Source of the DNA: Candidatus Eiseniibacteriota bacterium
GTDB taxonomy: Bacteria > Eisenbacteria > RBG-16-71-46
Length of the DNA: 64,000 nt
NCBI GenBank assembly: GCA_963707915.1
Contig: OY970178.1
Span: forward strand, 352,001 to 416,000
Direction of reading: 5' to 3'
Shown: in pieces, positions 1,477 through 54,293 of the stretch
Position numbering within the stretch: position 1 is the stretch's first letter
Layout: each line of letters opens with the position of its first letter
The notes under the pieces: generated by a model
What the model was told of the DNA's origin: nothing
The model's database searches: none
The model's input: only the letters and a program-made list of their open reading frames with translations
Translations under genes and position numbers: made by a program

Positions 1477-1508
1477 GTCCGCCGTGACCCCCGGTGGTGC
1501 GATTCGAC

Positions 1509-1538
1509 TTGACAGGCTTTCGTCAGTTTCCCTAGTTT
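1509..1538 (+). promoter_or_regulatory. Putative sigma70 promoter for the downstream OMP gene
   Basis: TTGACA (1509-1514), 18-bp spacer, TAGTTT (1533-1538). Confidence 0.5.
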
Positions 1539-50096: not shown

Positions 50097-50188
50097 GCCG
50101 GGCAGGGTGCCATGGCCGGCCCCGGGCCGTCGAGCGGGAAGCGCCGTGCCGGCGAAGCGCTGTGCTAGGCTGGCCGGCCGGAGGAGCC

Positions 50189-51109
50189 ATGGAGCCACGC
50201 TACGCGATCGGCCTCGACCTGGGAGGCACGGACCTCAAGGCCGGGCTGGTGTCGAGCCGGGGTGAGGTCGCGCACTTCCAGCGCCGGCCGGCGCGCGCCG
50301 GGGAGGACGCGGACGCGCCGCTCCGGGTCATCGCTCGAGCCGTGAGCGAGCTGCGGGCCGCGGCCGGTGGCCCGCTCGTCGGCATCGGGCTCGGCTGCCC
50401 CGGCGTGATCGACCCGGCCAGCGGGGCGCTGGTGGGGCGCACGGCGCACCTGCCCCACTGGGACTCGCTGCCGCTGCGCGCGCTGCTGGCGGAGCGGCTC
50501 GGCAGCGGCCTGGTGGTCGAGAACGACGCCAACCTGGCCGCGCTGGCGGAGGACCGGGCGGGTGCGGCCCGCGGCGCGCGGGCCTCGCTCACGGTCACGG
50601 TCGGCACGGGCATCGGTTGCGGCGTGATCGTGGAGGGCCGCGTGCTGCGCGGGGCGCACGGGGGAGCCGGGGAGCTCGGCCACCTGCCACTGGACGGGCG
50701 CCACCCCTGCCGCTGCGGCGTGCCGGGCTGCGTGGAGCCCGAGTGCTCGGGCAGCGGACTCGCGGCGCGGGCCGCGGAGGCGGGGCTGGCGGCGCCGGAC
50801 GCGGCGGCGGTGTTCGCCGCGGCGTCCGCGGGAGACGCGCGCGCCACGCGGCTGATCGAGCGCATGACCGACCGCCTGGGCGCCCTCATCGCGGCGGCGG
50901 TGCAGCTGTTCGACCCGGACGTGGTCGTGGTCGGGGGCGGGGTCGCGAACGCGGGCGAGGCGCTGATGGACCCGCTGCGCGCGGCGGTGAAGCGCTACGC
51001 GCTGGAGTCGCACCACCGCGGCCTGCGCATCGCGCCCGCGGAGCTCGGCGAGCGCGCGGGCGTGGTGGGCGCCGGGCTGGCCGCGTGGGACGCGGCGCCC
51101 AGGAGCTAG
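50189..51109 (+). CDS. ROK family sugar kinase
   Basis: DLGGT, ENDANLAALAE, GTGIG.G, GELGH, CRCG..GCVE. Confidence 0.93.
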   Translation: MEPRYAIGLDLGGTDLKAGLVSSRGEVAHFQRRPARAGEDADAPLRVIARAVSELRAAAGGPLVGIGLGCPGVIDPASGALVGRTAHLPHWDSLPLRALLAERLGSGLVVENDANLAALAEDRAGAARGARASLTVTVGTGIGCGVIVEGRVLRGAHGGAGELGHLPLDGRHPCRCGVPGCVEPECSGSGLAARAAEAGLAAPDAAAVFAAASAGDARATRLIERMTDRLGALIAAAVQLFDPDVVVVGGGVANAGEALMDPLRAAVKRYALESHHRGLRIAPAELGERAGVVGAGLAAWDAAPRS

Positions 51110-51132
51110 CAGCTAACGTGGACTGCGCATGA

Positions 51133-51184
51133 CCCGCTGCTGCGAACGCGAGCCGATCGCGAGCTGACCGCGATCGGCAGCGGG
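51133..51184. terminator. Hairpin after the ROK gene and at the distal end of the repeat array
   Basis: GCCGATCGCG / AGCTGAC / CGCGATCGGC inner stem, flanked by CCCGCT...AGCGGG. Confidence 0.45.
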
Positions 51185-51208
51185 CCTGTGCGTCGCTGCC
51201 GGCGAAGA

Positions 51209-51394
51209 TGTCACCCGTGCCCGGGGAGTGATCTGCTACGGGCGTCGCCAGTCGCAACCTCGATGTCGGCGATGGTGTCACCCGGGTCCCCGGTCTGCGG
51301 TGTCACCCGCGTCCCCGCTCGGGACTTCGATTCGGGCGGAAGGTGTCACCCATGTCTCCGGTCTGATCTGTTACCAATCTAGGCGGTCTGGACA
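51209..51394. repeat. Tandem array of three ~51-bp IS481-end-like units (period 67-68 bp)
   Basis: Units 51209-51259, 51276-51326, 51344-51394 each start TGTCACCC and match the IS end at 52718-52769. Linkers are TCGATGTCGGCGATGG and TCGATTCGGGCGGAAGG. Confidence 0.85.
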
Positions 51395-51404
51395 TCTGAA
51401 GCAA
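51376..51404 (-). promoter_or_regulatory. Junction promoter formed across abutted IS ends
   Basis: Minus strand TTGCTT (in the IS end), 17 bp, TAGATT (in array unit 3). Confidence 0.6.
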
Positions 51405-52769
51405 CCGGGGACATGGGTGACAGGACAGACCGGGCACATGGGTAACACATTCTAGCTTCCATAACGGCGGCGACGACGTCTGCTCAAGGCAGGATCAACG
51501 ATGGGTTCGAGCCGCCCAAAGTGGCGGGGTCCGCGGTCGGTGGCCTGCTTGAGATCTAGCAGTCCGATCGGCACCCAGCCGAAGTGGACACGCCACCGGC
51601 CATCGTCGCAGGGCTCGAGTCCGACCCGTTCGCCGACGAGGCAGTTGCTCACGTACCACTGCGTGGTGCCGAAGGTGATCACGCCGTTGGGATAGGCCAC
51701 CCGGGTCTCGAAGTGTCGCGGGTACTCTGGTTCGGGGAGCTCGCGCGGGTACGAGCGAAGCGATGGGCGGTAAAGCGCGGCCGGCACCTCCTGGCCGAGC
51801 GCCTCGTGCGGCCGCTCCTGGTTGTACTCCGTCTGGAAGCGATCGAACGCGCGTTGCTGGGCGCTGAAGCTCGAGCGCGGCGGTCTGGCGGTCTCGGCTT
51901 TCAAGGTGCGATGCATGCGCTCGTGGCGCCCGTTCTGTTCGGGACGACCTGGCATGATGCGTTCGGGACGGATCCCGAGTCGGATCCACCAGACCGAGAG
52001 ACGCGACAGTCCGCCCGGGGCGAGCGTCGAGAACGGCGGCCCGTTATCGGTGCGGATCGCCCTCGGCAAGCCGTATTCGGTGAAAGCGGACTCGAAGACG
52101 CGCCGGACATGCTGAGTGAGCGGACGACGCAGGGCGCGGCAGCGAAGGAGCAGGCGACTGTATCCATCGCTGATGGTCAGCGGATGACAGCGTTCACCCC
52201 GGCGACCCAGCGGGAAGTGGCCCTTGAAGTCGGCACACCAGACGGCGTTGGGTGCGTCGTACTGCCGCAGCCGGTCCCCGTACGGTGAGCTGCGCCGGAC
52301 TCGCCGGCGCGGGCGAACCAGTCCGCTGCGCCTCAGGATGTCGCCGATCGTGCTGGCCGCCGGGAGCGCGACCGGCGGCCGTTCCCGCTTCAGCACCACC
52401 CGCACCTTGCGTGGTCCCCAACGCGGATGGCGACGTCGGATCGCGACGATCGCCTGCACGAGGTCGGCGGCGACGGCGTTGGGATGAGAGTGCGGCGCGC
52501 GTGAGATCTCCTCGAGGGCCGCGACCCCGTCGGCCTCATAACGACGGACCCACTTGTACCCCGTCTTCCGGCTGACCCCGAAGTCGTGGCACAAGTCGGA
52601 GAAGCTGGCCTCCGCCTGCAGGTAGGCGGCAATGAACTTCACTCGTTCAGACATCCAGTCGGTCCTCGCCCAGGGCATCGTGTGGTCCTCCTCGAACCAC
52701 CCATGATGCCCGCGGGCTGTAACCCATGTCCCCGGTCTGATCTGTTACCAGTGTGCCCGGTCTGAACCA
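51397..52769 (-). mobile_element. IS481-family insertion sequence (1373 bp)
   Basis: TG...CA termini; imperfect ~51-bp inverted repeats (51397-51447, 52718-52769), each with two ACCGGG.ACA..GGT.ACA subrepeats; TC dinucleotide on both flanks. Confidence 0.88.
51452..52678 (-). CDS. IS481-family DDE transposase (HTH plus integrase core)
   Basis: MPW, FGVSRKTGYKW HTH, WGPRK, W.ADFKG (D), RTDNG.PF (D), QNGRHERMHRTLK (E), YN.ERPHEAL; GAGGAGG RBS. Confidence 0.95.
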   Translation of the reverse strand: MPWARTDWMSERVKFIAAYLQAEASFSDLCHDFGVSRKTGYKWVRRYEADGVAALEEISRAPHSHPNAVAADLVQAIVAIRRRHPRWGPRKVRVVLKRERPPVALPAASTIGDILRRSGLVRPRRRVRRSSPYGDRLRQYDAPNAVWCADFKGHFPLGRRGERCHPLTISDGYSRLLLRCRALRRPLTQHVRRVFESAFTEYGLPRAIRTDNGPPFSTLAPGGLSRLSVWWIRLGIRPERIMPGRPEQNGRHERMHRTLKAETARPPRSSFSAQQRAFDRFQTEYNQERPHEALGQEVPAALYRPSLRSYPRELPEPEYPRHFETRVAYPNGVITFGTTQWYVSNCLVGERVGLEPCDDGRWRVHFGWVPIGLLDLKQATDRGPRHFGRLEPIVDPALSRRRRRRYGS

Positions 52770-53003
52770 TCGATTTCGCTTGACAGGTGTCGGGGCTCGC
52801 GATGCGCCACGACTGCCGGGCTGTTCGCGCGGCTCGCAGGAAGTCGCAGGTCGAGCGGAGTACGCATCGCGGCCGCGATCGTGAACGCGTTCTCCCGCCG
52901 AGCCTCGTTGTGCGACCTGCCGGGCGCTGCGAGAGCTGAAGACCGGCATGATATGAATGGCCTCGCACTGCCCCCGTGACCCGCCCCCGCGCGGAGTCAC
53001 ACG

Positions 53004-54293
53004 ATGGATCGCTACTCCCTGGCCCACGTTCCCGACCCGGTCCTGCTGCGCGAACTGCGCTCGCTCGTCGCCCAGGACCGCGTCACCACCGCCCTGCTCG
53101 TCGCCCACCTCGGCGAGGTCGATGCCCGGCGGCTCTACGCCGAAGCCGGCTACCCCTCGATGTTCGCCTGGTGCGTGGAGCGGTTGGGCTTCTCCGAGGA
53201 CAGCGCCTACAAGCGCATCCGGGCGGCGCGGACCGCCCGCGAGTTCCCGGACGTCCACGCGATGCTGGCCGACGGCCGGCTGCACCTCGGTGGCGTGGTC
53301 GCGCTGGCGCCCTGCCTGACCGCCGCGAATGCGGGGGAGTTGCTGGCCGCCGCGGCGCACCGGAGCCGCGCGGGCATCGAGCAGATGCTGGCCGAGCGGT
53401 TCCCGCGGCCCGACCTGCCGGGCCTGATCCAGCCCGTACCCCAGCCGCCGATTAGTACGGATGTTCAGTGTGATCAAATTTCACTGGCCCCGGGGCCAGT
53501 GATTTCCAGTCCTGCTAAACACGAGGCCGCATCTCCCGCATTCGGTGAGCGCCAGGTCACCCCTCTCGCTCCGCAACGCTTCGCCGTGCAATTCACCATG
53601 GACCAGGAAGCGCACGCCGACCTGCTCTACGCCCAGGCCCTGCTCGGGCACGCGGTGCCCTCCGGCGACCCGGCCGCGGTGTTCGCCCGCGCGCTGAAGA
53701 CCCTGATTGCGCAGCTCGAGCAGCGCAAGTTCGCGAAGACCGACCGGCCCCGCCGCTGCCGCGCCAGCGACGACCCGCGGCACGTCCCCGCGGAGGTGAA
53801 GCGCGCGGTGTGGGAGCGTGACGGTGGCCGCTGCACGTTCGTGGGCACCGGCGGGCATCGCTGCGAGGCGCGCACGCGGCTCGAGTACGACCACGTCGAG
53901 CCGGTGGCCGACGGCGGGCGCGCGACGGTGCGCGGCCTGCGGCTGCGCTGCCGGGCGCACAACCAGTACGAAGCCGAGCGACACTTCGGGCGCGACTTCA
54001 TGGCGGCCAGGCGGGAGAGCGGCGGACGTGGGTCGGCTCCGAACGGGGCCGAGCGACACGGTGGGCGCGACTTCATGGCGGCCAGGCGGGAGCGGAGCGG
54101 GAAGCCCGGGCTGCCTTCGCACCTGGCGGAGCTGGTGCCCTGGCTGCGAACGCTCGGGCTCCGCGCGGAGGAAGCGCACCGGGTCGCGGAGAACTGCGGC
54201 GCCCCACCCGACGCCCCGCTCGAGGAACGCGTGCGCTACGCGCTGCGCTGCTACGGCGGTCCGCGCGGCGCGGTCACACGTCCCGCGGCCTGA
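53004..54293 (+). CDS. HNH endonuclease with a DUF222-like helical N-terminal region
   Basis: LLVAHLGEVDARRLY...GYPSMF.WC...LG.SE..AYKRI; V.ERDGGRC, RC, EYDHVEP..GG, LRCRAHN. Confidence 0.85.
   Translation: MDRYSLAHVPDPVLLRELRSLVAQDRVTTALLVAHLGEVDARRLYAEAGYPSMFAWCVERLGFSEDSAYKRIRAARTAREFPDVHAMLADGRLHLGGVVALAPCLTAANAGELLAAAAHRSRAGIEQMLAERFPRPDLPGLIQPVPQPPISTDVQCDQISLAPGPVISSPAKHEAASPAFGERQVTPLAPQRFAVQFTMDQEAHADLLYAQALLGHAVPSGDPAAVFARALKTLIAQLEQRKFAKTDRPRRCRASDDPRHVPAEVKRAVWERDGGRCTFVGTGGHRCEARTRLEYDHVEPVADGGRATVRGLRLRCRAHNQYEAERHFGRDFMAARRESGGRGSAPNGAERHGGRDFMAARRERSGKPGLPSHLAELVPWLRTLGLRAEEAHRVAENCGAPPDAPLEERVRYALRCYGGPRGAVTRPAA
53973..54092 (+). repeat. 45-bp direct repeat (period 75 bp) inside the HNH gene
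   Basis: 53973-54017 vs 54048-54092 with 3 mismatches; encodes AERH[FG]GRDFMAARRE twice. Confidence 0.9.

Follow-up and report, generated by a model that had tools for sequence, protein, structure and literature searches.

The window analysed here, a stretch of 64,000 nucleotides from the genome of a Candidatus Eiseniibacteriota bacterium (the study genome, G000), lies within a single 3.62-Mb contig of 72% G+C content. It holds an insertion sequence (IS) of the IS481 family, bordered on one side by a short array of repeats that resemble its own ends and on the other by a motif, T, at which a cassette for an HNH-like protein begins. From left to right, and with the strand given where one applies, the features are:

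50162..51109, plus strand: ROK-family gene, the left neighbour, unrelated to mobile DNA (Pfam ROK, E 8e-65)
51133..51184: G+C-rich hairpin, 24 nt past the ROK stop codon (fold energies)
51209..51275: array unit 1, a decayed transposase-proximal IS end and a decayed copy of T of 17-18 nt (repeat alignment)
51276..51343: array unit 2, a decayed proximal end and a 17-18-nt decayed copy of T (repeat alignment)
51344..51393: array unit 3, the stump of an older variant's proximal end, holding TAGATT (84% identity to 52718-52767)
51376..51404, minus strand: promoter-like pair, its -35 half the transposase-distal tip of the live IS and its -10 half in array unit 3
51394..51396: left target duplication ATC, the 'spacer' of the junction (comparison of copy ends)
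51397..52768, minus strand: IS481-family IS of 1372 bp, one of five identical copies (BLAST, terminal strings)
51397..51447: transposase-distal IS end, with the 7-nt tip TGAAGCA and 19-nt repeats at 51404-51422 and 51429-51447 (repeat analysis)
51452..52678, minus strand: transposase ORF of 408 aa, with HTH and DDE (rve) domains (NCBIfam, Pfam)
52718..52768: transposase-proximal IS end, with 19-nt repeats at 52718-52736 and 52743-52761 and a 7-nt tip (repeat analysis)
52769..52771: right target duplication ATC (comparison of copy ends)
52772..52787, plus strand: target motif T, GATTTCGCTTGACAGG, left terminus of the HNH-like cassette (the homology of six cassettes starts here)
53004..54293, plus strand: HNH-like ORF of 429 aa, one of six paralogs (tblastn, 54-72% identity)

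The five copies of the IS that BLAST finds in the genome show zero differences across their 1372 bp, an identity that could partly be an effect of assembly or polishing. The transposase is encoded by a single ORF without frameshift and is a DDE enzyme of the IS481 type; it matches the NCBIfam model transpos_IS481 (NF033577) over residues 12-302 with 229 bits, for a cut-off of 224, and the Pfam families rve, rve_3, HTH_32 and LZ_Tnp_IS481. The two ends are imperfectly inverted over 44 nt (82% complementarity), each carrying two 19-nt repeats of the form ACCGGG-N6-GGTNACA, and a perfect 3-bp duplication flanks every one of the five copies (ATC, ACC, ACC, AAC and GGT). Inverted ends with a short duplication are the pattern of the IS481 family, in which target duplications measure 4-15 bp; the 3 bp seen here are shorter. 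In the sense of the transposase gene, the outer repeat of the proximal end contains CACACT at the -10 position. That T might supply the -35 for this position was considered and rejected by eye: the hexamers 16-18 nt upstream (CGAAAT and its neighbours in the study genome, GCAAAT in the related copy L013) are not -35-like.

In all five copies, the transposase-proximal end lies 3 bp from T, in the same orientation. IS481 itself makes a 6-bp duplication at an NCTAGN target, in place of which we find a 3-bp duplication and the motif T. The right flanks of the five copies are homologous from base 1-3 onward over about 1.5 kb (67-92% identity), spanning a 235-nt leader and an ORF of 402-460 aa, and the left flanks are unrelated apart from their last 15-50 nt; the HNH-like cassette gains a defined left terminus at T. 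The genome contains four matches to T with up to two mismatches, all of them occupied. The IS is present at five of the six cassettes; at the sixth (C1:1942230-1940893), where the IS is absent, the leader is present and T is at its most diverged, with four mismatches. The right end of a composite transposon was sought at the other edge of the cassette and rejected, as the homology stops at or shortly after the stop codon and no 19-mer matches are found there. The cassette protein resembles HNH endonuclease models weakly: its HNH region, residues 263-328, matches NCBIfam IscB with E 6.8e-4, far below the cut-off, and Pfam HNH with E 0.048 (14.3 bits, for a cut-off of 21.4), and a motif of the D-H...N...H type is visible at residues 296-325. 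No Pfam threshold is reached by the protein, that of DUF222 included, and a sequence search of the PDB returned no relative.

On its other side, the IS abuts unit 3 of the array. As a preliminary description of this DNA had stated, and as can be read directly from the sequence, the minus strand of this joint contains TTGCTT (51404-51399) and TAGATT (51381-51376), which appear on the plus strand as AAGCAA at 51399-51404 and AATCTA at 51376-51381; the 17 nt between them, on the minus strand, are CAGATGTCCAGACCGCC. The -35 in the transposase-distal end points outward, and the -10 in the transposase-proximal end, here that of unit 3, points inward. The gap between the abutted ends, previously given as 2 bp, is in fact 3 bp and corresponds to the target duplication ATC: because perfect 3-bp duplications at all five genomic copies fix the ends, the IS must start at 51397, and the true proximal end exceeds the tip of unit 3 by 1 nt. 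The likeness of unit 3 to the upstream end of the IS, also part of that description, is borne out, with 84% identity between 51344-51393 and 52718-52767. Together, the abutted ends form an imperfect palindrome with 49-nt arms (51339-51387 and 51404-51452, 76% complementary).

Counting the end of the live IS, there are four in-register direct-repeat copies, starting at 51209, 51276, 51344 and 52718 with spacings of 67, 68 and 1374 nt, of which units 1 and 2 have decayed to 62-68% identity. The array does not appear in the output of Tandem Repeats Finder, and an extension of the 67-nt period to the right of T was rejected, the next three segments of 67-70 nt not aligning with the units. Similar remains border the IS throughout the genome: in the 15-50 nt to the left of it lie, at copies c1, c2, c3 and c4, decayed versions of its own transposase-proximal end and, at c5, half a proximal end with 22 nt copied from the distal tip after it. 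At c2, units 2 and 3 have counterparts in the corresponding positions, and the array is thus older than the split of the two cassettes concerned. Before the present insertions, these sites would have consisted of an old end, 3 bp, and then T (GATTTCGCTTGACAGG). The outer part of unit 3, GGTCCAGACC...TAGATT, is also found in the live relatives L070, L074 and L087, and unit 3 reads as what is left of an older G000-lineage variant in which the -10 was still present. Judged from its sequence, the joint is a live IS beside the 50-nt stump of an older copy, brought about by repeated insertion at one site. To account for the 17 nt of T copied into units 1 and 2, an additional tandem duplication is required beyond serial insertion; our guess is that a unit of 'end + T' was duplicated in tandem, perhaps through slippage at TGTC, which both begins the end and comes after T.

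The cassette gene occurs in 34 of 41 genomes (G000 and 40 relatives, the tally including genome G026), with 2-25 matches each at E<=1e-10; the transposase has a match (E<=0.001) in 22 of the 41, most of them distant. Among 29 cassette loci that were fetched, four (L097, L104, L107 and L115) contain the exact string [CT]TTGACAG about 220 nt upstream of the start, and L097, L104 and L115 show the full form, GATTTC-N2-TTGACAGG, without an IS remnant alongside. A solo remnant of the proximal end lies directly beside a variant T in L105 (genome G012) and L099 (G019); L105 retains about 90 nt of the IS, the start of the transposase included. At L004, in genome G008, a transposase pseudogene (67% identity) and a cassette homolog are divergently oriented, with the same spacing between them. 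Outside the lineage, 80 of 567 related loci were screened with a profile of the six paralogs, and a cassette homolog adjoins the transposase in L013, L014, L016, L017 and L025. L013 and L014 belong to one Marinacidobacterales MAG and have the duplications ATT and GTG; their IS copies match in 99-100 of 100 columns, the adjoining cassettes in 43-83 of 100.

From the tip of the IS to the core GTCAAG, the distance is 9-10 bp in G000, L013, L014, L017 and L004, and 9-12 bp in L016, where the tip is uncertain. Insertion is site-specific in five of five copies in G000, with four different duplications, in two of two in OZ250169, and in L017, L016 and L004, and three other lineages besides that of G000 show the same site and the same orientation. 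These instances provide strong evidence for an orientation-specific insertion at T that has been repeated through evolutionary time.

The main finding is site-specific serial insertion. The locus is probably a stack of repeated, orientation-specific insertions by one lineage of IS481-family elements at a single site left of T, with the promoter pair as a fossil. An attachment-like site would lie 3 bp left of GATTTCGCTTGACAGG, at the left terminus of the multi-copy HNH-like cassette; the current 1372-bp IS would have inserted between T and the proximal-end stump of an earlier occupant (unit 3), and units 1 and 2 would be older stumps that, with 17 nt of the target, underwent tandem duplication. 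New insertions would land head-to-tail against the previous occupant, so that the chromosomal joint comes to look like that of an IS circle or a tandem dimer. The ends and duplications, the site specificity, the remnants and the covariation described below can be read from the sequences; for this stack we infer the order and the mechanism of decay, and for the element a circle intermediate and promoter activity.

It could be argued that the transposase is drawn not by T but by remnants that resemble its own ends, making IRR-IRL joints in the style of IS30 and IS911. Four of the five copies do abut a proximal-end-like remnant, with a spacer of the length of the duplication; the string TGACAGG is common to T and to the 19-nt repeat of the IS; and in IS30 such targeting yields exclusively IRL-IRR junctions (PMC9333248). 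However, L013 and L014 are inserted at T without any end remnant on the far side of the insertion (two of two), c5 abuts a copy of the distal tip and not a proximal end, the point of insertion is fixed at 9-10 bp from GTCAAG across five lineages, and unoccupied cassettes in relatives have T with no remnant beside it. The remnants are in any case expected from earlier occupancy of a fixed site: where insertion re-uses one site, abutted ends follow, and a targeting of inverted repeats is not needed. We therefore regard such targeting as unlikely, a possible contribution in G000 aside, and site-specific serial insertion at T as the better account of the joints.

As to the promoter, the hexamer pair at 51376-51404 matches the sigma-70 consensus weakly (3/6 and 4/6, together 7/12), and a consensus promoter scan of 50900-53100 finds no promoter-like site, the TTGCTT/TAGATT pair not being called. 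A terminator scan of the same interval returns one terminator-like site, which is inside the transposase gene and unrelated. Genome-wide, an equally lenient level yields 3634 sites, 214 of which have the form TTGnnn-N16-18-TAnnnT. With TTGCTT fixed, TAnnnT (at least 4/6) would turn up at a distance of 16-18 nt in one or more of five flanks with a chance of about 0.004 in a genome of 72% G+C; because this conditional chance is so low, descent from an IS end accounts for TAGATT better than coincidence.

The junction promoter claimed in the preliminary description holds in part. Its geometry is the canonical one of a circle or tandem, with a spacing of 17 nt, TAGATT is kept in unit 3, and the pairing recurs and covaries among relatives, as described below; the joint is, however, neither an IS circle nor a live dimer. 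The live IS has CACACT in its proximal end where unit 3 has TAGATT, and the TTGCTT-type pair is present in only one of the five genomic IS junctions, the other four having CACACT or unrelated sequence in this place. Joined to each other, the live IS's own ends are predicted to read TTGCTT-N18-CACACT; the spacer is 17 at the chromosomal joint and 18 in the circle of the live IS if the spacer of the circle junction is 3 bp, which is assumed here from the 3-bp target duplication. The live IS has reached its five sites although no good junction promoter is predicted for it, and the case for the promoter being important is weaker for that. We consider it about evenly balanced whether the joint at 51376-51404 would act as a promoter, and a functional role for it highly doubtful; most likely, the promoter formed by the abutted ends is a by-product and not a regulator.

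If the pair fires, transcription would start near 51369 on the minus strand, and the putative RNA would comprise, in order, the inner repeat of unit 3, units 2 and 1, and the hairpin, and then run antisense into the ROK gene; only dead end-remnants would be transcribed, towards the ROK terminator hairpin. The hairpin at 51133-51184, noted earlier, is real and folds on either strand, with -42.2 and -42.4 kcal/mol over 51120-51200 (z of -2.95 and -2.74); it has no T-run, is probably the terminator of the ROK gene, and would also meet any transcript of the minus strand. The further suggestion that a functional junction promoter drives an RNA of 200-240 nt, made of IS-end repeats, that regulates transposition, perhaps by titration of the transposase or of a leader-binding factor, or by pairing of the RNA with the inverted end in the 3' region of the transposase mRNA, finds little backing in our analysis. 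The hexamers and their 17-nt spacing are present, the -10 is improbable by chance and the same as in the ends of live relatives, and IS481 itself makes Pout and hybrid-promoter RNAs (PMC6161684). Against this, the pair occurs in one of five genomic junctions only and hence is not kept with the IS, the putative RNA has the sense of the transposase leader and is not antisense to it, and units 1 and 2, at 62-68% identity, have diverged as unconstrained DNA does. The predicted RNA of 250 nt also shows no excess of structure (z -1.70; 10 of 200 shuffles fold as well), matches no Rfam family at threshold and has no ORF of note. A regulatory RNA at this place is thus very unlikely. Two Rfam models of animal miRNA precursors came up and were rejected, with 36.7 bits for a threshold of 100 and 28.2 bits for one of 94; their hits stem from the palindrome that the abutted ends form.

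Among relatives of the IS, the two halves of the promoter are found together in live elements. The ends of L070, L074 and L087 read GGGTCCAGACCGGA-TAGATT on the proximal side and TTGCAC at the distal tip, those of L013 and L014 TACATT and TTGCAC, and those of L015 TACATA and TTGCGC; the CAVYIZ element, present in nine copies, has TAAGAT and TTGCAC. The nearest relatives of the live IS have TACATT or TACATA at the -10 position. With the ends set by the 3-bp duplications and a junction spacer of 3 bp assumed, the spacing is N17 for L013/L014, L015 and CAVYIZ and N18 for L070/L087. Both ends were parsed automatically in 51 of the 79 loci with a full-length transposase, 28 not being parsed; with two further types read by eye (L070 and L028) and the IS of G000, this gave 37 distinct types. 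The ends of L070 and L074, which had been misread automatically, and of the CAVYIZ type were read by eye, and L002 (genome G026) was left out of both the end parsing and the tree.

On the tree of transposases, TTG is found at the distal tip in 11 of the 37 types; the tree needs six changes of this label, at least five of them forced by well-supported branches. The proximal hexamer TAnnn[T/A] is seen in 9 of the 11 types with TTG, compared to 2 of the 26 without it (Fisher 2e-5, a value that overstates the support because related IS types are not independent). The two exceptions among the types with TTG are the IS of G000 and L090 (TTGTAC/GAGAAG); in each of three sister contrasts (L018, L092 and L058), the type without TTG has a G at position 6 of the hexamer. 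Through this covariation, a circle-junction promoter looks like a trait of part of the subfamily, and we read it as one that is under selection there. In this part of the subfamily, the distal tip would carry a -35, TTGCnn, and the outer transposase-binding repeat of the proximal end a -10, TAnAT[T/A], which would come to lie 17-18 bp apart once joined. At the locus described here, the live IS would provide the -35 and the older variant the -10, yielding TTGCTT-17-TAGATT.

A chance resemblance of the hexamer pair, without relation to a promoter either in this copy or in the family, would be in keeping with the match of 7/12 that the scan does not call, with the 214 comparable sites in the genome, and with a -10 position that falls inside a transposase-binding repeat and is constrained for other reasons; it does not agree with the covariation of TTG and TAnnn[T/A] across at least five lineages or with the conditional chance of about 0.004 at this locus, and we hold it to be highly improbable. 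Least credible of all is a composite element, in which IS and HNH-like cassette would move as a unit, with assembly collapse or gene conversion behind the identity of the IS copies, and with the array as part of the terminus: although the pairing of IS and cassette is conserved in four lineages, the homology of the cassettes begins exactly at the IS end, and some sequence left of the IS is common to c1 and c2 and to c4 and c5, the IS is 100% identical among cassettes with proteins of 54-72% identity (the same contrast recurring in a second phylum), four different 3-bp duplications flank the IS alone, one cassette has T without the IS, and cassettes are found in 34 of the 41 genomes, transposase matches in 22.

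Serial insertion at T bears on how such loci are read in other genomes. Where an attachment site is used again and again, end stumps accumulate in arrays that look like circle junctions, and abutted IS ends in a genome need not mean active dimers or circles. Site-specific ISs and their targets can be located by looking for arrays of IS-end repeats beside a conserved motif. Together with its relatives, the locus provides evidence, at the level of sequence, for a junction promoter and for targeted insertion in the IS481 family. A more far-reaching proposal, which we put forward tentatively and regard as rather unlikely, is that the IS481 subfamily and the HNH-like cassette form a long-standing pair across at least three phyla, with T as a dedicated attachment site, in which every re-invasion would make a live head-to-tail joint, with a split promoter and recombinogenic ends that drive the turnover of the previous occupant, and in which the surviving stump at this locus still fires a decoy of the transposase leader. 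The phyla named for the pair are Eisenbacteria, Acidobacteriota and Myxococcota. If the pairing and live joints of this kind proved true, a junction promoter and a dedicated attachment site would be described for the first time in the IS481 family, and one selfish element would here have specialised on another. In searches of openly accessible literature, we came across no account of a junction promoter, circle or targeted insertion for IS481-family elements, of an IS that specialises on an HNH-type cassette's terminus, or of arrays of end stumps from serial occupancy.

The component parts of the locus are of known kinds: an IS481-family IS, a split promoter of the junction type, a site-specific IS, and hybrid promoters at IS ends. 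Junction promoters and targeted insertion are known from the IS3, IS30, IS21, IS256 and IS110 families; IS911, too, has a circle-junction promoter (Pjunc), and its insertion is targeted next to its own inverted repeats. The junction promoters of IS2 and IS30 have the same layout as here, with an outward -35 in the distal end and an inward -10 in the proximal end that form a complete promoter only when the ends abut, and with a short junction spacer that sets the promoter spacer to 17 bp, which IS2 needs exactly (PMC3299598, PMC9333248). Unlike these, the present case concerns the IS481 family and a putative promoter at a chromosomal joint of a live IS with a dead stump, not a circle; moreover, the -10 position in the active IS's own end is degenerate (CACACT).

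Targeted insertion and dimer formation by IS30, (IS30)2, are similar in their head-to-tail IRR-IRL joints, a spacer equal to the duplication and a strict orientation (PMC9333248). Abutted IS30 joints are recombinogenic and IR-IR junctions unstable, extremely so when Pjunc is aimed at an intact transposase gene (PMC9333248). From this instability we infer that the joints that survive would be those in which the downstream partner has been reduced to a stump. In contrast to IS30, the determinant here appears to be the external motif T, because relatives insert there without a resident end, and the joints are with decayed stumps and evidently stable.

Comparable in its choice of target is the ISAba32 subgroup of IS1202, which inserts at XerCD sites: the proximal end likewise lies at a fixed few bp from a conserved motif, with a short, characteristic duplication and many independent insertions at the same type of site (bioRxiv 10.1101/2022.12.17.520857). 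Bordetella pertussis IS481, with its promoters Pin and Pout and its hybrid promoters, belongs to the same family and combines a -35 within the inverted repeat with a neighbouring -10, and IS481-driven non-coding and antisense transcripts are common in that organism; in IS481, the -10 comes from ordinary flanking DNA, whereas here it comes from the end of another copy (PMC6161684). ISPpu9 of the IS110 family inserts into REP sequences and is another sequence-specific IS at a mobile-element or host site. In comparison with ISAba32 and ISPpu9, the IS described here is set apart by its IS481 transposase, by the terminus of an HNH-like cassette as its target, by the 3-bp duplication and by the arrays of end remnants.

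For the cassette itself, the nearest parallel is the mycobacterial repeat REP13E12, into which the phage phiRv1 integrates. Repeats of this REP13E12 or DUF222-HNH kind are landing sites for other mobile DNA (PMC10589994). The invader at T differs in being a DDE IS and not a phage with a serine recombinase, and the cassette protein in having no match at a Pfam threshold, but in both cases a multi-copy HNH-type cassette is used as an insertion site by other mobile elements.

The cassette at whose left terminus the IS481-family element (IS) inserts, 3 bp from the target motif T (window 52772-52787), belongs to a large multi-copy family, with HNH-like matches in 34 of 41 genomes (G000, the genome of the window, and 40 relatives) at 2-25 per genome; in a Pfam search, its protein matched no model at threshold. 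In several relatives T reads GATTTCNC-TTGACAG-GATTTCGCG, that is, the motif with a direct repeat on both flanks. A T-like motif with 3 mismatches, GATTCGACTTGACAGG, also lies at window 1501-1516 (C1:353501 on the G000 contig), with neither a cassette attached nor an IS.

Besides T, the 235-nt cassette leader contains two conserved elements, seen at window 52772-53003, in the five other G000 leaders and in four loci from relatives (L097, L104, L105 and L115):

Window 52949-52958: extended -10-like element, TGNTAT(G/A)A, about 50 nt upstream of the HNH-like start; conserved in cassette leaders.
Immediately upstream of the HNH-like start codon: inverted repeat, GTGAC-CCGCCCCCGCG-GAGTCAC; conserved in cassette leaders.

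The counterpart of the extended -10-like element in the cassette leader of L013, a Marinacidobacterales locus with both IS and cassette, is CATGCTATAAG.

Broken or partial copies of the IS and its relatives also occur. At 2185-2260 of locus L004 (genome G008) a transposase pseudogene ends after ...VWWI and is followed directly by another proximal-end tip (GGTCCAGACCGGGCACACGGG...); the break reflects one of two events, insertion of one element into another or a deletion begun at a junction tip. In the left flank of c5, one of the G000 copies (C1:1799682-1799730), the intact IS is immediately preceded by 22 nt that repeat its distal tip with 1 mismatch, and these 22 nt follow half a proximal end. 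G000 also has, at C1:2075068-2075431, part of an element more distantly related to the IS (39-45% protein identity, residues ~308-402); this fragment contains 2 TGA stops and one end repeat (ACCGGGGACATGGGTGACC).

In a deltaproteobacterial MAG (L025, 2488-4488), a 51%-identical IS relative lies inside a degenerate HNH-like gene and separates cassette residues ~254-300 from residues 299-362. The gene family is the same, and the insertion point differs from the one beside T. In further members of the transposase group to which the IS belongs, REP-like G+C-rich hairpins (for example GGCACGACTTGAGTCGTGCC and GGGCGGGCACAGCGGCCCGCCC) directly adjoin the proximal end:

L021, L023, L024, at ~2858-2900: REP-like hairpin beside the proximal end.
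L064-L072, at ~2884-2915: REP-like hairpin beside the proximal end.
L090, L091, at ~2880-2913: REP-like hairpin beside the proximal end.

Because the proximal ends of these members adjoin such hairpins, the fixed targets seem to differ between subgroups of the transposase group.
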